DNA from: Escherichia coli
GTDB taxonomy: Bacteria > Pseudomonadota > Gammaproteobacteria > Enterobacterales > Enterobacteriaceae
Reading direction: 5' to 3' (one strand)
Assembly: GCF_050320075.1 (NCBI RefSeq)
Contig: NZ_CP190018.1
DNA: 64,000 nucleotides
This document shows, in pieces, positions 1 through 13,871 of the stretch (position 1 is its first letter; every line of letters begins with the position of its first letter). The notes beneath the pieces were generated by a model. That model made no database searches. It was not told the origin of the DNA and saw only the letters and a list, made by a program, of their open reading frames with translations. The translations under genes and the position numbers were made by a program.

Positions 1-2
1 AT

Positions 3-155
3 AACGTTAAGGGCGTTGCAGAGGGTTCTAAGGCCATCAGAATCACAACGGACCAACTGGAACTACTCAAAGCACAGTCCGCAGTAGCAGGTTGCTCAAT
101 GATTCAGGTGTTAAGCGCAAAGGTCCATCAATTAGCGGATAGGCTGGGGGTTTAA
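3..155 (+). CDS. 3' end of an unknown ORF running in from upstream of the window (partial, about 50 codons visible)
   Basis: Open frame from position 3 with no stop until TAA at 153-155; that stop overlaps the ATG at 155 of the next ORF (TAATG). Not in the ORF track because it has no start inside the window. Confidence 0.3.
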   Translation, partial: NVKGVAEGSKAIRITTDQLELLKAQSAVAGCSMIQVLSAKVHQLADRLGV

Positions 156-580
156 TGCTATGCACATTTGATTATCATGCGTTTTATCGCCATAGAGGCC
201 ACCTTGTCCGTGAGAATAGCGGAACATGGAAAGATTTAACTCGTAATGCTGAACCCTTCACACACCAGCAATTAAAATCCCGCTTCTCCAGATGGAAGAA
301 TGCACCAGCAGATACTGGTGATTTTGAGATTATCCATACCTTCGATTATGCCTCAGAAGATGACCTTCACGATGCAATTAAGCTGATTGAAGACTTCAAT
401 ACCTCAGAAGATGTGGATGGTGACAAATATAAATCCCGTGGTAACCGCTATAACCGTGATGATATCACTCAGGCCATAAATGCTGGTCAATCTCAGCGAT
501 ACATTACAGAAAAATATGGTATTTCACGGAGACAGTATTTCTACGTTAAATCATTGATTAATAAAGACAATTCAAAATAA
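155..580 (+). CDS. hypothetical protein, 141 aa, with a C-terminal helix-turn-helix-like segment
   Basis: ORF-track ORF; ATG overlaps the upstream stop (TAATG); C-terminal stretch DDITQAINAGQSQRYITEKYGISRRQYFYV resembles a DNA-binding HTH; AT-rich codon usage like the rest of the element. Confidence 0.5.
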   Translation: MLCTFDYHAFYRHRGHLVRENSGTWKDLTRNAEPFTHQQLKSRFSRWKNAPADTGDFEIIHTFDYASEDDLHDAIKLIEDFNTSEDVDGDKYKSRGNRYNRDDITQAINAGQSQRYITEKYGISRRQYFYVKSLINKDNSK

Positions 581-717
581 CCATCTCAGTAACGGTAGAA
601 TGCACTTTACAGGCAGAGTTGCACCTTAATTTGATAAATTACCTTACCAGCCAGTGCAACTCCCTCTGTAACCCGCATGATTACTGGTCTCAGAATGGCT
701 ATTTTAAGAGGTCTGAG

Positions 718-1065
718 ATGTGTTTTGTAGGAGATTTAAAAATGAACAACTTCCCATTACAGATTTTCGTTGATAACGACACCGCTATGATGGTGCAAAG
801 CTTCAGTGATGCAGGTATTAGCATTGATTTTGACAGGCTGTTAAAGCTAATGGCTGATAATGAAGAAAACGTCTCTGACTTTATTCACTCGGTGGAGTTT
901 AACGAGCCTCGAATGATGTTACCAATTACAGACAGTAATATGAAAAGATTGGTTATTGAGCAAACGAACAAATACAGTATTTCCCCAGAGCAATTTTTGA
1001 AAGGTGCTGTGACAATCCTGTACAGCGATAATATTTTGGTTACGGATTCCGTGAGGGTTCACTAA
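718..1065 (+). CDS. hypothetical protein, about 115 aa (alternative start at 742)
   Basis: ORF-track ORF 619..1065 begins at a TTG; a better start is ATG 718 preceded by AAGAGG (706-711), or ATG 742 preceded by GGAG. No recognisable motif. Confidence 0.45.
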   Translation: MCFVGDLKMNNFPLQIFVDNDTAMMVQSFSDAGISIDFDRLLKLMADNEENVSDFIHSVEFNEPRMMLPITDSNMKRLVIEQTNKYSISPEQFLKGAVTILYSDNILVTDSVRVH

Positions 1066-1142
1066 TGGGCTTAATAATTGCTTGGACGTTGCTTGGCTTA
1101 TTTGTTGGTTGCTGGGTAGGCAGCACAGTAAATAGAAATTGA
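1065..1142 (+). CDS. candidate 25-aa hydrophobic micro-protein (MGLIIAWTLLGLFVGCWVGSTVNRN)
   Basis: ATG at 1065-1067 overlaps the TAA stop of the preceding ORF (TAATG); a single predicted transmembrane stretch followed by a polar tail; too short to appear in the ORF track. Confidence 0.3.
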   Translation: MGLIIAWTLLGLFVGCWVGSTVNRN

Positions 1143-1166
1143 TGTTACCAATCTGTTAAAAAGCTG

Positions 1167-1195
1167 TTGACAAATAACCTTAAGCATGAGATGAT
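1167..1195 (+). promoter_or_regulatory. sigma70-like promoter candidate (TTGACA, 17-bp spacer, TGn-GATGAT)
   Basis: Perfect -35 hexamer TTGACA at 1167-1172, 17-bp spacer, TG at 1187-1188 and a weak -10 GATGAT at 1190-1195; followed immediately by a short GAGAG/CTCTC hairpin and a T-run. Confidence 0.35.
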
Positions 1196-1359
1196 GGTAA
1201 TAGGGGAGAGCAACTCTCTCTTATTTTTCTTTCAAAATAATCCGATGGATGGATATTCTGAATTGGAAAGGTGCAATGCTTTTCGTCATGGCCTTTCAGT
1301 TTAGTCTGAGAGGCTATCTCAAAAAGTGCTTAATCATTCATTGAACCCTTTACAGCTTT

Positions 1360-1388
1360 GCCCTAACTCATGATTAGGGCTTTCTTTA
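1360..1388 (+). terminator. intrinsic-terminator-like hairpin (GCCCTAA / TTAGGGC) followed by TTTCTTT
   Basis: Perfect 7-bp inverted repeat at 1360-1366 and 1374-1380 with a 7-nt loop, then a U-rich tract. Confidence 0.4.
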
Positions 1389-1636
1389 AGAGTTTTTAAA
1401 CAGAGCTTTTAAAGAAAGTTTTTCCTGAAACTTCGTTAACGTTAAAGCAAACCTTCAAAGCCCTTCACAGATGAGGATGATTCCATGAATATCCGAATCA
1501 CCTATGTTTAGGGCTTTTTTCAGCTTTTAAAAAGCATACTTGGCAAACGCCTTTTAAGCCTCTTCTAAGTTCGAGGATGTCAGGTGTGCTTTTTAAAAAC
1601 TGAAACATAAATTATCTTAGAAGAGGAAAGGTATTA

Positions 1637-2341
1637 ATGGCTATCCGTGATGAAAATGAAATGATTATTGAAAACAAACCAAGTGCACTTGATATTCACG
1701 AATTAAGTTTGCGTGAATCTTTTGATAGAGCTTGGCGGGAATCACACGAAGTAAATAAAGGTCCATATATTCCACCAGAACCACTCGAGATTCCAAGAGT
1801 TGAAATTGATTTTTCTATGAACGAACGGTGTGAACTTGATTTGAAGTTGAAGCTACAACGCCGATATTTCCAAGCTATTAAAGACTCTCAAGAAGCAATG
1901 AGAAGTGTTTATGAGAAAATTCAGTCCAAGCTTGAAGACGAAATTGACGAAATGGCTATTTTGATGGAGCTTCAAACCAATCCTTATGCTTATTTCTCTC
2001 GACTAGACCGTGACGGTTGGGGGTATGACCCTGTAGAGATTGGTAAAGTGATTGCAGATTTACCAGAAGGTCAAAGGGTTATTCGTACGGAAAGGGCCAT
2101 CAGAGCGCCACATCAACTGTCTCTAATTGTTGCTGATAAATCACAAGCTGAGCTTGAAGAAATTGCCAAAGAGAAACTGATGAAAGCAAGAGAAAATGAG
2201 ATTAATTTGCTGAAATCAAGACTGGCTAAGCTGATTAGTGACCATCAAGCGCTGGCTAAGGAGTACCGTCAAGAGTTGGCACAGATTATCAGCTTCAATG
2301 ATTTTCTGAGTGTTCCACGAGAATTTAGCAAGGCTGTTTGA
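1637..2341 (+). CDS. hypothetical acidic protein, 234 aa
   Basis: Strong RBS (AGAGGAAAGG) 7 nt upstream of the ATG; glutamate- and lysine-rich with an apparently helical C-terminal half; no motif recognised. Confidence 0.6.
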   Translation: MAIRDENEMIIENKPSALDIHELSLRESFDRAWRESHEVNKGPYIPPEPLEIPRVEIDFSMNERCELDLKLKLQRRYFQAIKDSQEAMRSVYEKIQSKLEDEIDEMAILMELQTNPYAYFSRLDRDGWGYDPVEIGKVIADLPEGQRVIRTERAIRAPHQLSLIVADKSQAELEEIAKEKLMKARENEINLLKSRLAKLISDHQALAKEYRQELAQIISFNDFLSVPREFSKAV

Positions 2342-2364
2342 TTATGAATTAAAAGAGGTGATTA

Positions 2365-2583
2365 ATGTATGAAGACCGTTTGGAAACTATCAAGGCAGTT
2401 TGTGAAAAACTTAAAAACCAACCACGTAAACCAAAAACGGTAAAGAGTAAGCATCAGCCTGTCACCTCAAACAGCAAAATAAAGATTCGCAAAATTCCTT
2501 CGTGGTGCATTGACCGTATTCCGGTTGGTTCAAGAATTATTCGTGAAGATGGTGATTATCATTGGGTATCAGTTGTTGGTTAG
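2365..2583 (+). CDS. hypothetical small basic protein, 72 aa
   Basis: RBS AAAGAGGTGA upstream of the ATG; lysine/arginine-rich; followed by an intrinsic terminator. Confidence 0.5.
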   Translation: MYEDRLETIKAVCEKLKNQPRKPKTVKSKHQPVTSNSKIKIRKIPSWCIDRIPVGSRIIREDGDYHWVSVVG

Positions 2584-2598
2584 TTAGTAAAAATCTAC

Positions 2599-2638
2599 GG
2601 GAGAGATTATCGAGTGATATCGGTAGCTCTCCCTTTTT
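2599..2638 (+). terminator. rho-independent terminator
   Basis: GGGAGAG (2599-2605) pairs with CTCTCCC (2627-2633), followed by TTTTT. Confidence 0.55.
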
Positions 2639-2671
2639 CGTATATGAACACTTAAGAGGTGAAAAATATGA

Positions 2672-4804
2672 ATGAGCAAATTCACAGTTGATAGTTTTAT
2701 CGTTGAATTAAGCTTCAATGAAAACATTATTAAGGGCTTGCAAAGAGTTGAAAAGGCAGCTTTGCAGTCAGCACAAAGAATTGAAAAGAACCTAAATAAA
2801 GGTTTCAGGATTAATACAAAGCAGCTTGATAGTAATTTAACGGCTTCTTTAGGGCAGCTTGAAAGGAAGTTTAATAAGGCCTTTGACAAGATTGAACAGA
2901 GAGCAAGAAATACTAAAGCTTTCCAGTTTACCACCAGATTTAATGACACTGTTAATCCTCCAAAACAACCGAGACAGCCACGAATTAGCGGCAACAGAGC
3001 AATCACAGCAGCTTACTCAGCGAATATGAGCAAGCTAAAAGGCTTTGACCCTATTTTGCAGAAATACATCAAATCTCAGTTTTACGGGCTATCTGCTAAA
3101 GCCGGTTCAATGGATTCTTCAAAATTCAATGAGAAGTTAGCTCAGTTAAACGCTTCAGTCAGAGAAGCAATTGCTAAAGCCAGAGGTCATACATCCACCA
3201 GCATTAATGGTGACAGAGCAGCTAATAGTCTTGATAACCTGTCTTCAGCAGCAGTTAAAACAGCAGGTGCATTTATCTCAATGCAGGCTGTATTAGCCAG
3301 TTATCAGAAGATTATGGAAATTGGTTTACAGCGTGCAAGTGCTGAACGTTCAATTGATTTCGTATTTGATAAAGATGCAGGTCAAGTAAAAGAGTTCACA
3401 AAGTCATTAGCTCAAACAACGGGTTTAGATATCGCTGAACTGCAATCACAGTTTGCTGGTTTTGGTGCTTCAGCTAAAGAGTCTATGGGCATTCAAGGTT
3501 CTGAAGAACTTTTTAAAAATATGATTGGCTATGCTCGTCTGATGGGGAGAAGTGAAGAAGAGATTAAGCGAGCACTGACAGCATTATCACAGATGGCTGG
3601 TAAGGGTCAGGTTATGGCTGAAGAGCTTAAGGGGCAATTAGCTGAAGCTGTTCCTGGTATGGTTCAGGTATTCGCTAAAGCAACCGGAAGGAATGAACAA
3701 GAGCTATTTGATGCCATGAAGAAGGGGGCTTTAAAATCTGCCGATACTCTTCAGAAGGTCACTCAGGAACTGAATAAACAAATCACCGCTAAAGGTGGCT
3801 GGAAAGCTATTTCAGAAAGTACACAGGCACAACTAGGGAACCTGAAAAACTCTTGGAATACCACGCTTGATAGTATCTTCAGAGGTTCTGAAGATGGTCT
3901 GCAAGATTTTACAAGAAGCTTAACAACGCTTTTAAACGCTCTTGGTGGAAGTGGTAAAAGTCTTGGTGAATCTCTTGGTAGTCTCATGACTTCTATGTCA
4001 CATGGTGTCGATTCATTGACTGATATCAGCTACAGGGTAAGAGCATTCTTCGATGAGGTGACATTAGCTTACCGTTCACTAAATGACACTCAGAAAAAAA
4101 TTGTTGATGGTTTATCTGATGGGTTAATTGATGGTTTGAAGATGCTTGCCGTAGCTGTTACTGCTCAAAAGGCTGCAAATGTAGCTGGAGGCTTGTTAAA
4201 CCTTGCAAATGCTGTTACTTCATTCGGTGATGCTGTTAATAAAGCTAAAGCTGGCAAGGCTGGTTCTTCAGGTGGTGCGCTAAATAAAGTTGGTAGAGTT
4301 GTTCTTTATGCTGAGTTGGTGAACTTTGCTCTTGATAATTTAAACCCTGAAGCGGCTAAGAATCCGAACTTACACCAATCAGGTATTGGAACAGAGACAA
4401 ACTTCAACCCTGAATACAAAGGCGATTCATCTAAACCAAACCAAATTAATGATGGATGGGCTAAGATTGGTAGTTCTATCGCTGACTGGTTTAATGGTGC
4501 GGCTAATAAAATTGCTAACTTCCAAGACCCGATGAATAACTTTGTTAATAACACACAATCAACTCCACCAGCTATCACAGGTGACATGGTTAATAGCAAT
4601 GCTCAACTTGCTATGGCTGTATCAGAGTTAGGAAGAAAGGTAGACGCTTTAACAGTAGAAGCTAAGAAGCCTTTATCAGTTAATATCAAAGGTGAAGCAA
4701 TTGTTAGACCGGATGAACCAGCTTTCTTTACTTTCAATCAATCAGCTAATGACCAGTTCACGCAGGATATGCTCTTAAGTTCAAGCTATCCAGAGGAAGA
4801 ATGA
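2672..4804 (+). CDS. phage tail tape-measure-domain protein (TMP-like), 710 aa
   Basis: RBS AAGAGGTG upstream; helical, alanine/glycine/lysine-rich; the segment ALTALSQMAGKGQVMAEELKGQLAEAVPGMVQVFAKATGRNEQELFDAMKKGALKSADTLQKV matches, from memory, the conserved core of phage tape-measure proteins. Confidence 0.6.
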   Translation: MSKFTVDSFIVELSFNENIIKGLQRVEKAALQSAQRIEKNLNKGFRINTKQLDSNLTASLGQLERKFNKAFDKIEQRARNTKAFQFTTRFNDTVNPPKQPRQPRISGNRAITAAYSANMSKLKGFDPILQKYIKSQFYGLSAKAGSMDSSKFNEKLAQLNASVREAIAKARGHTSTSINGDRAANSLDNLSSAAVKTAGAFISMQAVLASYQKIMEIGLQRASAERSIDFVFDKDAGQVKEFTKSLAQTTGLDIAELQSQFAGFGASAKESMGIQGSEELFKNMIGYARLMGRSEEEIKRALTALSQMAGKGQVMAEELKGQLAEAVPGMVQVFAKATGRNEQELFDAMKKGALKSADTLQKVTQELNKQITAKGGWKAISESTQAQLGNLKNSWNTTLDSIFRGSEDGLQDFTRSLTTLLNALGGSGKSLGESLGSLMTSMSHGVDSLTDISYRVRAFFDEVTLAYRSLNDTQKKIVDGLSDGLIDGLKMLAVAVTAQKAANVAGGLLNLANAVTSFGDAVNKAKAGKAGSSGGALNKVGRVVLYAELVNFALDNLNPEAAKNPNLHQSGIGTETNFNPEYKGDSSKPNQINDGWAKIGSSIADWFNGAANKIANFQDPMNNFVNNTQSTPPAITGDMVNSNAQLAMAVSELGRKVDALTVEAKKPLSVNIKGEAIVRPDEPAFFTFNQSANDQFTQDMLLSSSYPEEE

Positions 4805-4967
4805 TTTCTTATATATCCGTGTGCTACGTGATTTCTTCTGAACAGATATACCCACTAAAAATTATTTTTTACGTAGCTCACGCTTAACAGAGAAAATACT
4901 TATATATCAAAGGCTTGGTTAAAAATGATTAAAATACACTAAGCCTTTGAAATCAAAGGAGAATTTA

Positions 4968-5741
4968 ATGATTTACTCTAATCAGATTCGTTACAGTGGT
5001 AAAGATGGCGTTTACTTTCATCTACAAGGCCAGCCAGATAATTTCTTGTCACTATCAGCTACTGAGAACATGGAATTTGACAGCCCTATGATGGTTACCA
5101 CTCAAAATATGCAATCAGGGCAGACTGTCACAGATAATGTAATGCGTTCACCCAGAACTATTTCAATCAGTGGTGTGGTTGTAGTTGGTGAATCCGGTAG
5201 TATCCTTATCTCAAGAGATAATAAGCTGGTGGAAAACTTCATAGACACTCTTGAAAACTGGCGTGACCAGAAGCAAATTATCTCAGTTGTCTGTAAAGAT
5301 GGTATTAAGATTGACGACTCAATTATTACAAACTTTAAAGCCTCTAAAGATGTTGGTATTGCCAATGGTCTTAGAATCCAATTAACTTTTCAGGAAATTA
5401 ACTTTAAAGCTATTGTGGGTCAGACTGATATCTCGGCTGCGACCGGAAGGACTTCTACCACAAGTGATGGTGGTGCTACCAGTAAAAAGAATACAGGGAA
5501 CACTACGACAAGCTTAGGTAACGGTATGTTGATGTGTCAGGAGCTATATAATCGCTCTACGAGTGAACTTACTAATGAGCAACTTCAAGCCCGTATCAAT
5601 TGTGGTAAAAATGTCAGAGTTAAGAACGGAAAAAGCACCTTCTCAGATGCCGCTAATGAGCAAGCTTCAAAGGTGCTTAATAATGCTGGTACAGGTAGTA
5701 CTTTGAAGAAGTATTCTGTTAATCCTAACAAGCGATACTGA
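4968..5741 (+). CDS. hypothetical protein, 257 aa; possibly a distal-tail-like protein, judged only by position after the tape-measure gene
   Basis: ORF-track ORF 4947..5741 begins at a TTG; preferred start is ATG 4968 preceded by AAGGAG. The N-terminal half looks beta-strand-rich and the C-terminal half is Ser/Thr/Gly/Asn-rich. Confidence 0.5.
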
Positions 5742-5755
5742 CGATAGAATCTCAA

Positions 5756-7279
5756 CTATATGATAACCTCATCAACATCTATTAAACCCCTCTCAGTGAC
5801 TTCAGAAAGCGACTGTATAGCCTCTGTAACGTTGTCTGAGGGGTTTTCTGTTATTGGTAAGGTGATTGCTTTACCGTTGTGAAAAGTTACTTTACAGCGA
5901 CGTTTAGCAGTATTTAAAACGACCTCTTTAACAGCACTTTTGATTATCAGTTGTGCTTCAATCCTTCCCGCCTTTGTAGTCAAGTCACAATCAGACAAAC
6001 AACCCACATCAATAGATTTAAGGCGTTGTGTCTCCTTCTCGATATCCGCATCAACTTGTGATAGCTCATTCTTTAGTTGTCTTAGTTTGCTGGTAATAGC
6101 GGACAAGTCTTCAATTTCAAGTGATAGCTGTACCAGCTTTTCAATATTGCTTGAGATGTGTTCACGGTGTAGCTTCAGTGTGTCTATGGTATTCGTCATA
6201 TCGCTATCAAATCGGTCAAGACGAGATAGCAGGGCAAGCAATGTACCATCGGTTTGCTTACGTGAAAGTCCTTTAGCACTACAACGGTTTTCATTACGAA
6301 GAGGACAACGATAAATCCCGTTTCTTGTATCGCTAAAGCCTGTGATAATCAAAGCATGACCACATTCAGAACAACGGATAACACCTTTGAAAAGATTCAC
6401 AGCCATTGGCTTATCTGAAGCAGGTTTTCTACCGTAACGAGCATATGATAGTTGTTGAACTTTGTAGAATGTTGTTTCATCTATAATTGCAGGATAATAA
6501 CCAGATATCTCCTCACAGCCTTTAGGTGTGAAGTAACCAATTACAGAGCGATTCTTCAAAAGGTCTTGCACTGAGGTTTGACCAAACTTACCTGCTTTGT
6601 ACTGGTTAAGCGTCTGGTGACCTTCAGCATTAAGAGTTCTGACAATCTCCCAGATAGACTTACCCTCTAACCGTAGCTGAAAGCACCTCTTCACAGTCTC
6701 CACTTTCTCAGGTATCACAGAGAAGCTTTTACGGTCATCATTAAGCTTAAGCCATGCAGGACAACGCCTAGAAATCTTGATACCAGCTTTAGCAGCTTCT
6801 TTCTTTGCATCCCATGCAGCTTGTATACGCTCAGCCTTACGTAATGATTCCTCATGCGCCCTTTGCATTATCAAAATGCTTTTAATCAGAGCTAACGGGT
6901 CTTTAAGAGATTCCCTTGTGTAATGTTCACCATCGGACAGGGTGACTACATCTACACCAGAGCGAAGAATGTTTCTGAGTAGCTCACTTGCTTGGTCTAC
7001 GTCCTGACGTGAGAGACGGTCTAAACTCTCGATTAGTAGTGTATCACCAGCTTTAACAAGCCCTTTCTCGATAGCGGTTAAAAAGTCACCTAAGCCACCT
7101 TTCAAGTGCTTACCAGTGAACCCGCTAACGCCTAAATCACGAAAAGTAAGGGATTCATCCAGATAGTACTCAGGATGAGCCTTAAGCCAATCAGTGACCA
7201 TCTTAGCCTGTCGTCTTAATGAGTCGCCTCTGGATTGCTTCTCAGATGAAAACCGGATGTAACTGATTGCACGTTTCAT
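5756..7279 (-). CDS. large serine recombinase (phage-type serine integrase), 507 aa
   Basis: N-terminal resolvase-type catalytic domain (ISYIRFSSEKQSRGDSL...LLIESLDRLSRQ), a central recombinase region, a cysteine-rich zinc-ribbon-like motif (CSECGHALIITG...YRCPLRNENRCSAKG) and a coiled-coil C-terminus; convergent with the cargo genes and adjacent to the host junction. Confidence 0.85.
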   Translation of the reverse strand: MKRAISYIRFSSEKQSRGDSLRRQAKMVTDWLKAHPEYYLDESLTFRDLGVSGFTGKHLKGGLGDFLTAIEKGLVKAGDTLLIESLDRLSRQDVDQASELLRNILRSGVDVVTLSDGEHYTRESLKDPLALIKSILIMQRAHEESLRKAERIQAAWDAKKEAAKAGIKISRRCPAWLKLNDDRKSFSVIPEKVETVKRCFQLRLEGKSIWEIVRTLNAEGHQTLNQYKAGKFGQTSVQDLLKNRSVIGYFTPKGCEEISGYYPAIIDETTFYKVQQLSYARYGRKPASDKPMAVNLFKGVIRCSECGHALIITGFSDTRNGIYRCPLRNENRCSAKGLSRKQTDGTLLALLSRLDRFDSDMTNTIDTLKLHREHISSNIEKLVQLSLEIEDLSAITSKLRQLKNELSQVDADIEKETQRLKSIDVGCLSDCDLTTKAGRIEAQLIIKSAVKEVVLNTAKRRCKVTFHNGKAITLPITENPSDNVTEAIQSLSEVTERGLIDVDEVII

Positions 7280-7346
7280 TGTTCACCTCACCAATAGCAG
7301 TTGGGCTTGTACCAACCCCTAGATTGTATCGCTTTAGATGGTGTAT

Positions 7347-7841
7347 TTAAACGTGTCTAATAAAAATCACCCGATTAACGCCGCGCTGATGTAAACCGCG
7401 ATTAAGCGTTTGTTCCTCTTCCCCTTTGGCGAAAAACTGTGGATGGCGGACTTCCACACCATAATTAAATTCGCCGGGAAGGGAATCGAGAAAATGCCAA
7501 AGCGCAGGCAGATCCCGTGGGCCAAATGTGGCAGGCAGTTGCAGCCAGTATTGCCCAATGCGCGGCGCTAACGGTGACATGCGGGTCAAAAATTCAGTCA
7601 CTAAATCATCGCAATGCCGTAATGCTGCCTGATGCGAAATGGTCGCCGGAAACTTAAAACAGAAGCGAAAATTATCTGTGGTCTGCTCACGCCAGCGCAG
7701 GACAACCTCGGATTTCGGCAGGGCGTAAAGCGTGGTGTTGCCCTCCACACAGTTAAAGTGGCGGGCATACTCTTCAAGGCTGGTGATCCCCAACCGCACC
7801 CATTTAGGATGCGACCATTGCGGCAGACCGATGTAAATCAT
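7347..7841 (-). pseudogene. yecE: yecE (DUF72 family), 5' portion only: reading frame interrupted by the insertion
   Basis: N-terminus [29 protein letters not shown] matches recalled YecE; the frame stops after 164 codons (intact YecE is about 272 aa from memory) exactly where GC-rich host sequence changes to the AT-rich element. Confidence 0.7.
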
Positions 7842-8404
7842 AATGCGTTGAGGATCTCTTCCACACTGCGCACACGGGCGATGCGTGGGTAGATATGGTT
7901 GATGCTGTTATTGTGCTGCTCGGCGCTGGCGGCGCTGCAGGCGTCTTCGGCAATCACCAGATTAAAACCGAGTTCCCAGGCATTGCGGGCGGTGGATTCA
8001 ACACCGATATTGGTCGAGATCCCACATAATACTATTGTATCGATACCCCGGCGGCGTAATTGCAACTCCAGATCTGTACCGTAAAACGCCCCCCACTGAC
8101 GTTTGATGATTTCGATATCACTGTCAGTTGCACCTAATGCAGCAGGATGTTGCCACCAGTTTTCGGGCAACACTTTAGCGGGGGAAGGGGCATCAACCGG
8201 CTGTTTTAATGCTTCGGCGTAATCGGCAGACCAGCCAACGCGCACCAGAAACACGGGCTGACCGCTGGCGCGAAATTTCACCGCCAGCTTCCCGGCGCGA
8301 TTAACCACCTCATCGGCAGTATGTGGACCTCCGGCAAAAGGTAAGATGCCTTCTTGTAAATCAATCACCACCAGCGCGGTGGTTTTAGCATTAAGTTCAA
8401 GCAT
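7838..8404 (-). CDS. yecD: isochorismatase-family hydrolase YecD
   Basis: [23 protein letters not shown]...; ORF-track ORF trimmed to the internal Met that gives a 188-aa product. Confidence 0.85.
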
Positions 8405-8713
8405 GATGACTCCTGACAAAACAAAATCGTGCCTCTCACCTTAATGCGATTAGCCGATGGCGGAACGACAAATTTTGTTAATTTTTATGAGTTCGGGCAA
8501 CACCTTTATAGCAAACTGGCGTAGAGTCTGATTTCAGGCCCGATATAAAGTGGTAACGAGGCGTTCCAGCGCGGGCCAGACTCTTACGGTGCGGCAGAAT
8601 TTCCAGTATAATAGCCGCCTTTTTTCATTCAGTTGTGACATACAGCTAACGCTGCGACTTGGTCACCTGCGCAGCAGGGGGCATCCGCCGGCAGCTAAGT
8701 TAAGGGATATCTC

Positions 8714-10486
8714 ATGCGTACAGAATATTGTGGACAGCTCCGTTTGTCCCACGTGGGGCAGCAGGTGACTCTGTGTGGTTGGGTCAACCGTCGTCGTGAT
8801 CTTGGTAGCCTGATCTTCATCGATATGCGCGACCGCGAAGGTATCGTGCAGGTATTTTTCGATCCGGATCGTGCGGACGCGTTAAAGCTGGCCTCTGAAC
8901 TGCGTAATGAGTTCTGCATTCAGGTCACGGGCACCGTACGTGCGCGTGACGAAAAAAATATTAACCGCGATATGGCGACTGGCGAAATCGAAGTACTGGC
9001 GTCCTCGCTGACTATCATCAACCGTGCAGATGTTCTGCCGCTTGACTCTAACCACGTCAACACCGAAGAAGCGCGTCTGAAATACCGCTACCTCGACCTG
9101 CGTCGCCCGGAAATGGCTCAGCGCCTGAAAACCCGCGCTAAAATCACCAGCCTGGTGCGCCGTTTTATGGATGACCACGGCTTCCTCGACATCGAAACTC
9201 CGATGCTGACCAAAGCCACGCCGGAAGGCGCGCGTGACTACCTGGTGCCTTCTCGTGTGCACAAAGGTAAATTCTACGCACTGCCGCAATCCCCACAGTT
9301 GTTCAAACAGCTGCTGATGATGTCCGGCTTTGACCGTTACTATCAGATCGTTAAATGCTTCCGTGACGAAGACCTGCGCGCTGATCGTCAGCCTGAATTT
9401 ACTCAGATCGATGTGGAAACTTCTTTCATGACCGCGCCGCAAGTGCGTGAAGTGATGGAAGCGCTGGTGCGTCATCTGTGGCTGGAAGTGAAGGGCGTGG
9501 ATCTGGGCGATTTCCCGATAATGACCTTTGCGGAAGCAGAACGCCGTTATGGTTCTGATAAACCGGATCTGCGTAACCCGATGGAACTGACTGACGTTGC
9601 CGATCTGCTGAAATCTGTTGAATTTGCAGTATTTGCAGGTCCGGCGAACAATCCGAAAGGGCGCGTTGCCGCTCTGCGTGTTCCGGGTGGCGCATCGCTG
9701 ACCCGTAAGCAGATCGACGAATACGGTAACTTCGTTAAAATCTACGGCGCGAAAGGTCTGGCTTACATCAAAGTTAACGAACGCGCGAAAGGTCTGGAAG
9801 GTATCAACAGCCCGGTAGCGAAGTTCCTTAATGCAGAAATCATCGAAGCCATCCTGGATCGTACTGCCGCGCAAGATGGCGATATGATTTTCTTCGGTGC
9901 CGACAACAAGAAAATTGTTGCCGACGCGATGGGCGCACTGCGCCTGAAAGTGGGTAAAGACCTTGGTCTGACCGACGAAAGCAAATGGGCACCGCTGTGG
10001 GTTATCGATTTCCCGATGTTTGAAGACGACGGTGAAGGCGGCCTGACGGCAATGCACCATCCGTTCACCTCACCGAAAGACATGACTGCTGCAGAACTGA
10101 AAGCTGCACCAGAAAATGCGGTGGCGAACGCTTACGATATGGTCATCAATGGTTACGAAGTGGGCGGTGGTTCTGTGCGTATCCATAATGGTGATATGCA
10201 GCAGACGGTGTTTGGTATTCTGGGTATCAACGAAGAGGAACAGCGCGAGAAATTCGGCTTCCTGCTCGACGCCCTGAAATACGGTACTCCGCCGCACGCA
10301 GGTCTGGCATTCGGTCTTGACCGTCTGACGATGCTGCTGACCGGCACCGACAATATCCGTGACGTTATCGCCTTCCCGAAAACCACGGCGGCGGCGTGTC
10401 TGATGACTGAAGCACCGAGCTTTGCTAACCCGACTGCACTGGCTGAGCTGAGCATTCAGGTTGTGAAGAAGGCAGAGAATAACTGA
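8714..10486 (+). CDS. aspS: aspartate--tRNA ligase
   Basis: 590-aa ORF with class II aminoacyl-tRNA synthetase motifs ([28 protein letters not shown]). Confidence 0.95.
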
Positions 10487-11084: not shown

Positions 11085-11825
11085 ATGGCAGGTCATAGTA
11101 AATGGGCCAACACCAGACATCGTAAAGCTGCGCAGGATGCTAAGCGCGGTAAAATCTTCACTAAAATCATTCGTGAGCTGGTAACCGCGGCTAAGCTGGG
11201 CGGTGGTGACCCGGACGCTAACCCGCGTCTGCGTGCAGCAATTGATAAAGCATTGTCTAACAACATGACCCGTGACACTCTGAACCGCGCAATTGCACGT
11301 GGTGTGGGCGGTGATGATGATGCAAACATGGAAACCATCATCTACGAAGGTTACGGTCCTGGCGGCACGGCAATCATGATTGAATGTCTGTCTGACAACC
11401 GCAACCGTACCGTTGCTGAAGTGCGTCATGCATTCAGCAAATGTGGTGGTAACCTCGGTACTGATGGTTCCGTAGCCTATCTGTTCAGCAAAAAAGGCGT
11501 GATCTCCTTCGAGAAAGGCGATGAAGACACCATCATGGAAGCAGCTCTGGAAGCGGGTGCTGAAGACGTTGTGACCTATGATGACGGCGCGATTGACGTC
11601 TACACTGCATGGGAAGAAATGGGTAAAGTACGCGACGCTCTGGAAGCGGCAGGTCTGAAAGCAGACAGCGCGGAAGTTTCCATGATCCCGTCCACCAAAG
11701 CTGATATGGATGCTGAAACCGCACCGAAACTGATGCGTCTGATCGATATGCTGGAAGATTGCGACGACGTGCAGGAAGTCTACCATAACGGTGAAATCTC
11801 CGATGAGGTTGCAGCGACTCTCTGA
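11085..11825 (+). CDS. yebC: YebC/PmpR-family transcriptional regulator
   Basis: [27 protein letters not shown], the YebC-family signature. Confidence 0.9.
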
Positions 11826-11859
11826 TGGGGCCTGCTAAACAGCAAAACGGAGACGCGTG

Positions 11860-12381
11860 ATGGCTATTATTCTCGGCATTGACCCGGGTTCGCGCGTGAC
11901 CGGCTATGGCGTCATCCGCCAGGTAGGCAGGCAACTCTCCTACCTGGGTAGCGGATGCATACGCACCAAAGTGGATGATTTACCGTCTCGTCTGAAGCTC
12001 ATCTATGCGGGCGTGACGGAAATCATCACCCAGTTCGAGCCTGATTATTTCGCCATTGAACAAGTCTTTATGGCGAAGAACGCTGACTCAGCCCTGAAAC
12101 TGGGTCAGGCGCGCGGCGTGGCGATTGTGGCGGCGGTGAATCAGGAATTGCCGGTATTTGAATATGCGGCACGTCAGGTAAAGCAAACGGTGGTAGGTAT
12201 TGGTAGTGCTGAAAAAAGCCAGGTGCAGCATATGGTCCGCACCTTGCTGAAACTGCCCGCTAATCCACAGGCGGATGCTGCCGATGCATTAGCTATCGCG
12301 ATTACCCATTGTCACGTCAGTCAGAATGCGATGCAGATGAGCGAATCGCGGCTGAACCTGGCGAGAGGGCGACTGCGTTAA
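11860..12381 (+). CDS. ruvC: crossover junction endodeoxyribonuclease RuvC
   Basis: [18 protein letters not shown]; conserved position upstream of ruvAB. Confidence 0.9.
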
Positions 12382-12382
12382 G

Positions 12383-12985
12383 TTATACCGCCTCGGTCAG
12401 TTCCGGCTGAGGCGTTTCCACTCCCTCCGCATGAATCAACACCAAACCCGGATGATGCCACAAACTGGCTGGCGTGACGGTTTTACGCTCCCACGGAATA
12501 GAACCCAGGAACCAGAATTTCCAGAAAGTGAGTTTTGCATTCGGATTGCTATTTAACAATTCTCCAAACGTCTCTATTTCACCCACCGGAATACATAGCG
12601 CCTCTTTATAAATATCAAAAACAAATTTTGAACAGAACTGGCGCGAAGATTCGTATTTAAAACCGGTGTGGTAAAGTTTGCGTAGCCGGGAGGGAACCTG
12701 TTCAACAATTCGTTGTTTTTGTTGTTCTGTCAGCCCAGCGTCTAATCGCTTTATAGCATAGCGTTGATTAGACGAACGTTTAATAAAACGAGATAGCGTG
12801 GTGATGGTTGAAAGGGGAACCCGGCTTTCTGCAACCAGGAAGTCTTCACCGTTATGACCGATAATGATCCCGACGTGATTACTCCAGCAATTTGATGCAG
12901 CTGATATTTGACCAAATAAGGCAGCACCTATACATGTAAAGACGATATCTCCAATTTCATATTCAGCAGGGTAATTAATATTCAC
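12383..12985 (-). CDS. yebB: DUF830-family protein YebB
   Basis: ORF-track ORF trimmed to a GTG start ([16 protein letters not shown]...) that gives about 200 aa; start assignment is uncertain. Confidence 0.7.
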
Positions 12986-13259
12986 GTTGTCATTCCATTG
13001 AAATAGATACGAATATACGTAATAGCATAAAAAATTTATTTTTTCAGGAGGCGCAATGTATATTTTTATTACGCATTTCTTCACTGAATATGTAATATTA
13101 AAATATTTGCTTCCAATATAACCTGTAGAACAAATTATACTGTGCCATTTTTCAGATCATCGGGACACCTCGCAAGTTTTCTTCATCCTTCGCTGGATAT
13201 CTATCCAGCATTTTTTTATCATACAGCATTATCTTTGATTCATTACGCAGGAGCGTCAT

Positions 13260-13871
13260 GTGATAGGCAGACTCAGAGGCATCATCATTGAAAAACAACC
13301 CCCGCTGGTGTTAATTGAAGTGGGCGGCGTAGGCTATGAAGTGCATATGCCGATGACCTGTTTTTATGAACTCCCTGAAGCGGGTCAGGAAGCGATCGTT
13401 TTCACCCACTTTGTGGTGCGTGAAGACGCGCAACTGCTGTACGGTTTTAACAATAAACAAGAGCGCACATTGTTCAAAGAGTTGATCAAAACCAACGGCG
13501 TCGGCCCGAAGTTAGCGCTGGCGATCCTCTCCGGAATGTCAGCGCAGCAGTTCGTTAATGCCGTTGAGCGTGAAGAAGTGGGGGCACTGGTGAAACTGCC
13601 GGGTATTGGCAAAAAAACCGCCGAACGCTTGATTGTTGAAATGAAAGACCGATTTAAAGGTTTGCATGGCGATCTCTTTACGCCAGCCGCCGACCTGGTA
13701 CTCACGTCTCCTGCCAGCCCGGCGACCGACGATGCTGAACAAGAAGCGGTTGCCGCGCTGGTGGCGCTGGGCTATAAACCACAAGAAGCAAGCCGCATGG
13801 TGAGCAAAATCGCTCGCCCTGACGCCAGCAGTGAAACATTAATTCGCGAAGCCCTACGCGCCGCGTTATGA
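13260..13871 (+). CDS. ruvA: Holliday junction branch-migration complex subunit RuvA
   Basis: [28 protein letters not shown]. Confidence 0.95.

Follow-up and report, generated by a model that had tools for sequence, protein, structure and literature searches.

Related systems and the studied locus

The PeSL cassettes (promoter-early stem-loops) have been described in T4-type phages (Arbiol et al., 2010, PMC2839356; Comeau et al., 2014, PMC4122927). Here, we compare with them a non-coding linker from a 64,000-nt window of the Escherichia coli contig NZ_CP190018.1, to which all coordinates refer unless another locus is named. The linker is located in a chromosomal island, between the gene of a phage-like tape-measure protein (TMP) and a Dit-like baseplate gene (open reading frame 6, ORF6), and contains two inverted repeats, designated IR1 and IR2. 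As judged from the sequence, both repeats are possibly the structured cores of a conserved linker that works as a PeSL-like portable module for expression and exchange of genes, and this is the reading that we tentatively favour.

IR1 and the PeSLs have several features in common. Both are conserved composite intergenic motifs of ~80–100 bp, repeated within one genome family, with a stem-loop located directly 5' of a Shine-Dalgarno (SD) sequence and a start codon. Both flank variable genes, and recombination between their copies shuffles the bracketed genes. Per island, IR1 was found at the start of two or three genes; it ends with the invariant terminal box CACGCTTAA (4879–4887 in the window; elsewhere the SD follows 2–6 nt later). 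The interior blocks of IR1 occur in all combinations, breakpoints of similarity fall at or in the cassette, and copies on both sides of the TMP gene, 2.1–2.3 kb apart, were present in 30 of the 69 loci with enough sequence (43%). However, the PeSLs carry strong sigma-70 −35/−10 promoters and G/C-rich terminating stem-loops, whereas IR1 has only a TAnnnT hexamer, a sigma-70 score below chance and no U-tract. In addition, the arms of IR1 bracket the putative promoter region, while the PeSL stem-loop lies within or beside the promoter. There is no sequence similarity between the two, and the host of IR1 is a chromosomal island rather than a T4-type phage. Since the defining sigma-70 promoter is absent, IR1 was placed outside the PeSL family.

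Ogr/Delta acts on a dyad element, TGT-N12-ACA near −55, to activate the late promoters of phage P2 and of its satellite P4. If IR1 is a promoter, it would be analogous to them in serving structural genes of a satellite/helper pair, in a weak or missing −35 element, in factor dependence, and in a dyad at a fixed distance from the −10 element. However, its sequence and geometry are different, as the −10-like element stands between two 8-bp boxes that are separated by 37 bp. The REP/BIME elements of E. coli are imperfect intercistronic palindromes of ~35 nt without U-tracts, which are located at hundreds of chromosomal sites and can stabilise upstream mRNA. IR1 and IR2 are likewise intercistronic imperfect palindromes without a U-tract, and both systems comprise repeated elements; unlike REP, to which they are unrelated in sequence, IR1 and IR2 are confined to one island family. 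No dispersal of the REP/BIME type was observed for IR1, as every inspected match in E. coli genomes lay in this island family, at no more than six places per genome. In phage T4, a hairpin in the early transcript of gene e masks the ribosome-binding site (RBS), which is an example of an anti-SD/anti-anti-SD switch. The IR2 region is predicted to resemble such switches in having three mutually exclusive pairing partners; unlike in them, its default full-length fold would leave the SD open.

Structure of the linker and distribution of the IR1 cassette

Direct reading of the sequence confirmed both inverted repeats noticed in a first-pass annotation of the window. The IR1 arms, CGTGTGCTACGT (4818–4829) and ACGTAGCTCACG (4871–4882), are complementary at 11 of 12 positions, with one T-T mismatch, across an A+T-rich interior of 41 nt. 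The core arms of IR2 are CAAAGGCTT (4908–4916) and AAGCCTTTG (4941–4949); its full stem comprises 13 pairs including one G-U (4907–4919 with 4938–4950), closes an 18-nt loop (4920–4937) and ends 5 nt before the SD of Dit. The two repeats had been described as nested; in fact, they stand in tandem, IR1 at 4818–4882 and IR2 at 4907–4950, without overlap. Each is directly preceded by a copy of the 10-nt direct repeat CTTATATATC (4808–4817 and 4899–4908, respectively). RNA folding of 4795–4990 yielded −43.6 kcal/mol for the + strand (z = −4.3, 0/200 shuffles), and the − strand was less exceptional (z = −2.2). Folded alone, IR1 gave −16.7 (z = −2.9, 2/200 shuffles) and IR2 gave −17.4 (z = −4.75, 0/200 shuffles). 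Both hairpins thus formed in the predictions and exceeded chance, and the IR2 stem was longer than had been annotated.

Neither repeat looks like a canonical terminator, in agreement with the first reading: the sequences after IR1 and IR2, CUUAACAGAG and AAAUCAAAGG, respectively, contain no U-tract, the loops are 41 and 18 nt long, and a scan of the + strand from 4000 to 6000 revealed no terminator-like sites. A search of 2300–5300 on both strands against Rfam, with E values up to 10, gave no match. As hairpins, the two repeats are modest, and their interest comes from the setting. The likeness between IR1 and IR2 arms (GCTACGT/GCTTGGT) was judged not significant, and no significant enrichment of CTACGT/ACGTAG was detected in the island.

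IR1 is not a hairpin private to this spacer. The comparison demonstrated that it belongs to a portable 81-bp cassette (4815–4895), which can stand before as many as three genes of one island and was recovered in 56 distinct variants of the same length. Partial BLAST matches of the spacer in E. coli genomes covered the ~70-nt IR1 unit alone. The invariant parts of the cassette are the core CTACGTGA (4824–4831) in the left arm, an A-tract, the TAnnnT hexamer that follows it (TATTTT in the window, 4863–4868) and ends 2 nt before the right arm, the core T(T/C)ACGTAG of the right arm (4869–4876) with its ACGTA, and CACGCTTA at 4879–4886, also written CACGCTTA(A) with the next base. The interior of these variants is composed of three or four block types, every combination of which occurs. 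The homology with locus L008 (L numbers designate the collected loci) began exactly at 4822, and many matches in E. coli genomes started or stopped inside IR1. A sigma-70 consensus scan of the + strand of the spacer and of other IR1 variants found no promoter; the best position weight matrix score in the spacer was 6.4, below the mean best score of shuffled sequences (7.8, sd 1.3).

A profile search of all collected loci detected one to three IR1 copies per locus. IR1 was located between the TMP and Dit genes in every junction examined. The copy upstream of TMP lies between a tool-called intrinsic terminator and the TMP SD, for example in L003, and the stretch 2640–2655 of the window (GTATATGAACACTTAA), after the terminator, represents the "empty" form of this site. 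In islands with the type-2 Dit allele, the spacer between TMP and Dit likewise has a hairpin, IR1 and the SD in this order; the hairpin, TTGCCA-CGCA-TGGCAA, was recognised by eye and was not called a terminator by the scan. A third version of IR1, with a long interior of ~110 nt (CCTACGTGAAAG ... TTTCACGTAGAACACGCTTAA), was found on the left side of the islands, in their non-coding control region. At all three places, the orientation of the cassette and its position relative to the SD were constant.

Several minor features were observed around these copies. The few bases that separate the terminator from the TMP SD (window 2639–2660 and the same spot in L005, L015, L016, L020, and L022) are a hot spot for different small hairpins, namely IR1, GATAGTCTTCTATC, and GGATAGCCTTCTATCC; in L005 the hairpin is flanked by the duplicated GTATATGAGG / GTCTATGAGG. 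A 27-nt mini-hairpin, TGATTCGGATAAGAATTATCCTCA, directly follows CTACGTGA in L016 (~4560–4600) and in L046 (~9840–9870), one being a TMP-upstream copy and the other a control-region copy, which suggests a sequence exchange between cassette copies. In the control region of L002 (11780–12010), CTATATA-type repeats are clustered beside the long-interior IR1-like copy, and one of them is the perfect palindrome CACTATATATAGTG. By their sequence, these repeats look like operator sites, and CTTATATATC beside IR1 and IR2 may be related to them. An invertible element was considered for IR1 and rejected: by eye, ATACCCAC and the A-tract have the same orientation in 56/56 variants, and no interior is the inverted form of another; the island has no small invertase, and the 37-bp interior is very short.

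Conservation and mosaicism of the linker

Among 62 distinct loci, the mean pairwise identity was 0.94–0.98 over 4868–4957, compared with 0.51–0.79 at the 3' end of TMP and 0.65–0.92 in Dit; positions 4946–4970 served as the search anchor for metagenome loci, while 4868–4945 were not part of the anchor. Across dozens of mosaic islands, a 90-nt non-coding stretch is thus better conserved than the adjoining tail genes, and one of the two modules of the linker recurs at several gene starts. IR2 was the most conserved stretch of the region.

Covariation was examined in both stems. For the 14-pair stem of IR1, 84% of the cells were paired and the covariation score was 0.057, against a shuffle mean of 0.058. 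The outer pairs were unpaired in 20–70% of variants, and just one pair had a two-sided change, in two cells. For IR2, the 31 variants displayed 97% column identity, 97.8% paired cells and zero two-sided changes. No compensatory change was thus detected in either stem, an outcome which the first-pass annotation had named as speaking against its proposal; with a variation of just 3%, IR2 is too invariant for this test to have more than low power. A search for ORF6 in one genome per species (GTDB) found it outside E. coli only in E. albertii, and therefore there were no deep homologues for a covariation test.

Origin of the spacer at the TMP–Dit junction

In the Felix-O1-type phage, the genes for TMP and the Dit homologue overlap by one base (TAATG; GAAGAATAATG). 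In the island, the two genes are separated by 163 nt, and the Dit start is duplicated so that a copy stands on either side of this insertion. The left copy, ATGATTTCTT (4801–4810), has an ATG that overlaps the TMP stop (ATGA), at the place where the phage Dit starts, and ATGATTT is found at both 4801 and 4968. A further relic, GTGATTTCTTCTGAACAGATA (4828–4848), lies inside IR1 and is identical in register to Dit codons 2–7 at 13 of 18 nt, a match equalled by just 0.04% of the 18-mers of the island. The Dit start sequence therefore occurs three times in the window, at 4801, at 4828 and at the real start, 4968. Islands with the type-2 Dit allele have a spacer of 173 nt between copies of the repeat AGGAATAA(C)ACAATGTT, a duplication of 15–17 nt, and in the type-2 relative L139 the junction is uninterrupted (GAGGAATAAACAATGTTTGAC). 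The duplicated flanks and the overlapping phage junction indicated that the linker is derived, and that it was inserted with duplication of the Dit initiation region.

L139 is a different, G+C-richer prophage-like contig, in which (1592–3722) the last ~280 nt of a type-2 TMP gene are fused behind another long ORF and are followed by the first 173 codons of Dit. The occurrence of this junction in a different element indicates that the TMP–Dit junction travels between elements. When an empty type-1 site was used as a synthetic query, the best 25 matches among 5,426 E. coli genomes were all in two pieces, that is, filled. Comparison of the spacer with 50,697 phage records by BLAST gave only chance A+T-rich matches, and the similarity to Felixounavirus begins at 4992, inside ORF6. 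The whole genome of the Felix-O1-type phage VSe11 was searched for IR1, its boxes, and CTTATATATC, and none was found; nor did its late intergenic regions contain a related motif. Thus, the idea of IR1 as a copy of a helper late promoter has no support. In type-2 spacers, the relic ATG of Dit opens an 18-codon hydrophobic ORF, MLELLIFIATHGNLLIFI, that spans the hairpin TTGCCA-CGCA-TGGCAA upstream of IR1 (L003, 8152–8208).

IR2 and the translation start of Dit

IR2 (4907–4950, arms 4907–4919 and 4938–4950) is present as a single copy per island and only upstream of type-1 Dit alleles. Its frequent variants, C4944T (10/31), C4914T, G4917A and A4938G, maintain pairing on the + strand only, through G-U pairs, whereas pair-breaking variants were rare singletons. 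This pattern provides weak but directional support for an RNA stem.

It had been proposed that the second stem occludes or regulates the start of ORF6. A role in ORF6 expression fits the position of IR2 next to the RBS and its very strong conservation, but occlusion does not: the stem ends at 4950 and does not include the SD (AAGGAG, 4956–4961; start codon ATG, 4968–4970), and a hairpin or RNA thermometer sequestering the SD was thus not found. In the predicted minimum free energy fold, three weak outer pairs touch AAG of the SD, and these pairs were gone from the centroid of the longer fold, so that the SD was essentially free. An alternative small hairpin, CCUUUG (4944–4949) with CAAAGG (4954–4959), could occlude the SD, but it is precluded by the formation of IR2 and would form only when the left arm of IR2 is absent or occupied. 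In an RNA starting at 4940, CCUUUG was predicted to fold onto CAAAGG; in the predicted fold of the full transcript, IR2 prevailed and the SD was free. The three mutually exclusive partners are the left arm ATCAAAGG, the right arm CCUUUGA, and the SD region AUCAAAGG. The left arm and the SD region share one 8-mer, so that the right arm can pair with either. A mini-ORF in the IR2 loop (MIKIH, 4925–4942) was rejected, as its ATG is lost in several variants.

Proposed function and alternative explanations

The fixed length of IR1, its invariant boxes and the lack of covariation argue for recognition of sequence and spacing, i.e., of DNA, over a selected RNA stem. Furthermore, its reuse at several gene starts points to a module of expression or gene shuffling rather than one simple RNA switch. 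According to the reading we favour, the linker would have been inserted into a phage-type TMP/Dit junction with overlapping, translationally coupled genes, and would now serve the island. IR1 may act on double-stranded DNA as a gene-start cassette, in which two sequence-specific boxes stand at a fixed spacing around a −35-less, −10-like element. It would then be a factor-dependent internal promoter or operator by which transcription is started anew, or gated, for the tail gene that follows. It may also be a patch for homologous recombination at which TMP and Dit alleles swap, because it is the only conserved patch between divergent alleles. In the mRNA, IR2 would fold first and tie up the anti-SD sequence CCUUUG, and thereby the SD of Dit would stay open; possibly, IR2 also protects the transcript end.

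Several points weigh against this reading. There is no sigma-70 promoter, and the −35 region of IR1 is not conserved, with only TAnnnT being invariant; therefore, promoter activity of IR1 would need a further factor. The cassette is optional upstream of TMP and thus is not required for TMP expression. The polymorphisms G-U/G-C and C-G/U-G in IR1 (columns 16–56 and 4–68, respectively) are compatible with RNA pairing on the + strand. Frequent recombination, and not selection, could have produced the high conservation as a side effect, and since IR1 descends in part from coding sequence, certain features of it may be accidents of its history. For IR2, there is no compensatory double change, and the loop is as conserved as the stem.

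A more specific form of the proposal is that IR1 represents a factor-dependent gene-start cassette of a new type, with two 8-bp boxes bracketing a −35-less promoter, in an undescribed E. coli satellite family that has its own Felix-O1-type TMP and baseplate-hub genes. The cassette would be turned on only by a factor from the helper phage or by an island regulator, and its bracketing copies would allow exchange of whole TMP alleles. In this detailed form, the proposal is unlikely. In the Felix O1 genome paper, no phage-specific promoter motif was reported, and the transcriptional programme of such phages is not understood (PMC3185647). If the linker is a regulated expression cassette, it would provide a direct experimental handle on the timing of tail genes in this island family and would help to account for the interplay of the family with virulent phages of the Felix-O1 type. 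It would also be a second, independent example of a "mobile regulatory cassette" in phage gene shuffling, which has been documented so far for T4-type phages.

The alternatives were considered in the order of hairpins acting only as RNA, a recombination scar without function, a translated small ORF, and a miniature transposable element of the MITE type. Both repeats might be purely RNA stem-loops in a polycistronic TMP–Dit transcript, which protect the TMP segment from 3' exonucleases, serve as a processing site or insulate Dit translation, with no promoter or DNA-binding role. The better folding of the + strand than of the − strand (z = −4.3 vs −2.2), the advantage of each hairpin over shuffled sequences, the one-sided changes in both stems that are G-U compatible on the + strand only, the rarity of pair-breaking variants in IR2, and the lack of a promoter consensus in the spacer are all consistent with this possibility. 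Yet, IR1 has zero covariation despite much variation, and its outer pairs fail in 20–70% of variants. Moreover, its loop has a fixed length and is swapped block-wise, neither of which an RNA hairpin with a 37-nt loop needs. The TMP-upstream copy stands downstream of a tool-called terminator, where few read-through transcripts would be expected, with a similar order in the type-2 spacer after the uncalled terminator-like hairpin, and in the control-region copy the boxes are retained around an interior of ~110 nt. We regard the RNA-only explanation as somewhat unlikely. If the spacer were instead a scar that regulates nothing, its palindromes would be chance products of illegitimate or short-homology events that recurred at the Dit start, and the conservation would result from recent spread and gene conversion. 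The Dit-start fragments duplicated at 4801, 4828, and 4968, the 15–17-nt duplication around the type-2 spacer together with the intact junction of L139, the deletion-like "empty" forms upstream of TMP, the mosaic breakpoints at the cassette, and the free recombination of the interior blocks would be explained in this way. However, in 62 distinct loci whose alleles diverge, 4868–4957 exceeds both flanking genes in conservation, no TMP–Dit junction examined lacks IR1, and no empty type-1 site appeared among the best matches in 5,426 genomes. In addition, the orientation of the cassette and its position relative to the SD are constant at three places, and the boxes stay invariant within an otherwise variable interior; a mere scar is distinctly improbable.

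IR1 also contains a small frame of 19 codons plus TAA, from the GTG at 4828 to 4887 on the + strand, which in the window extends up to the ATG at 4801 (28 codons) and overlaps the TMP stop (ATGA). Its translation would relay ribosomes from TMP to Dit, with the start codon masked by the hairpin. None of the 56 same-length variants interrupts the frame, and all 11 distinct stop triplets lie in one or the other of the two remaining frames (p about 0.012). The last codon is still a stop, TAA or TAG, and a variant with a 27-nt insertion remains in frame. An in-frame ATG overlaps the TMP stop in the window and, by reading, stands just before it in the second left-flank type, and only a few nt separate the end of the frame from the SD that follows, be it that of TMP or that of type-2 Dit. 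On the other hand, the GTG has no SD, the substitutions appear by eye mostly non-synonymous and neutral, and the invariant columns have no three-base periodicity. A +1 variant shifts the frame in at least five loci, and the control-region copy stops after 5 codons. Descent from the 5' coding end of Dit partly explains the open frame. A translated ORF is highly improbable. The chance that IR1 is a MITE-like element is slimmer still; it would have terminal inverted repeats of ~17 bp (TTAAGCGTGnGCTACGT ... ACGTAGCnCACGCTTAA) and, in the window, CTTATATATC as the target duplication. The longer left arm of the control-region copies (TTAAGCGTGTTCTACGT), the 10-nt direct repeat around IR1 in loci of the window type, the presence/absence polymorphism upstream of TMP, and the several copies per island agree with such an element. 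Nevertheless, the copies stand only at three fixed positions, in gene orientation and inside this island family, and nowhere else in E. coli chromosomes; the flanking direct repeat occurs in one of several left-flank types only. Furthermore, the "empty" sites retain the outer ends of the cassette and resemble an internal deletion, and no transposase was identified, the "transposase" annotation of a 234-aa protein of the island having no family support.

The island and its genes

The linker belongs to an integrative island of ~12.2 kb that splits the yecE gene, as seen in a record that is 100% identical to the window. On one side, the yecE island is flanked by flhA...yecN, and on the other by yecD, aspS, and ruvABC. 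The window holds the right part of the island (1–7364), which continues leftward in L002 (10533–15401). Identity with NZ_CP123240 showed that the rest of the window (7842–64000) is ordinary E. coli core chromosome (yecD, aspS, nudB, yebC, ruvCAB, znuABC, mepM, lpxM, pyk, hexR, zwf, edd, and others). The related islands have a common gene order, comprising a variable left end, a helix-turn-helix (HTH)/replication-like gene, small ORFs, ORFs of 234 and 72 aa, TMP, Dit, and a recombinase, and are located within yecE, adjoining tonB or adjoining wrbA. Matches were found in 402–466 of the 5,426 complete E. coli genomes, or roughly 7–9%.

The TMP gene (2672–4804, + strand, 710 aa; PHROG 4036, PF20155) and the Dit-like gene (ORF6; 4968–5741, + strand, 257 aa; PF21821) flank the linker, in accordance with the first-pass description of the upstream neighbour as a tape-measure gene. 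These two are the only phage-like genes of the island, with 35–64% aa identity for TMP and 72% for Dit to VSe11, where the Dit homologue is gp063. The last TMP codons, CCA GAG GAA GAA, are the same as at the end of the Felixounavirus TMP gene. An intrinsic terminator (GGGAGAG...CTCTCCC followed by TTTTT) is located after the 72-aa ORF (2599–2638, + strand). At the right end of the island, a large serine recombinase is encoded on the − strand (5756–7279), next to a part of the split yecE (7365–7841). The "transposase" annotation of the 234-aa protein was rejected for lack of Pfam, NCBIfam or PHROG support.

Matches of at least 99% between the window and 16 records of Stx-converting phages proved to be 38 bp of the yecE flank (7363–7400) at the record ends, and not the recombinase. 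The island thus uses the same yecE locus as Stx prophages, without sharing their integrase. In the literature, we found no paper describing such an island; on this ground, we infer the label "satellite-like" for what is apparently an undescribed element. As context for the island, and not for the hairpins, the PLE satellites of the Vibrio cholerae phage ICP1 may be compared, which are similarly small chromosomal islands with a large serine recombinase and an apparent tie to a virulent myovirus. Unlike them, the island described here carries phage-like TMP and Dit genes, and its dependence on a helper is only presumed. Metagenome contigs of ~12 kb had no terminal repeats in a circularity check and contained chromosomal flanks.

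Some further features were noticed in the islands. To the left of the window part, the 322-aa HTH gene contains a 23-bp repeat (ACCCAACCAAAAATTGGTTACCT) in three tandem copies (L002, 14048–14116), an arrangement like that of an iteron origin located within the gene of its initiator. The window contains a 571-nt non-coding gap (1066–1636) with a good sigma-70-like site, TTGACA-17-GATGAT with TG (1167–1195), directly followed by a terminator-like hairpin (1199–1225); a second terminator-like site is located at 1360–1380. This gap could encode a small RNA or an attenuator. In L006, IS2 is inserted inside TMP and ISEc12 inside the recombinase (insertion spans 7908–9136 and 11136–13439), and therefore some copies of the island are decaying.

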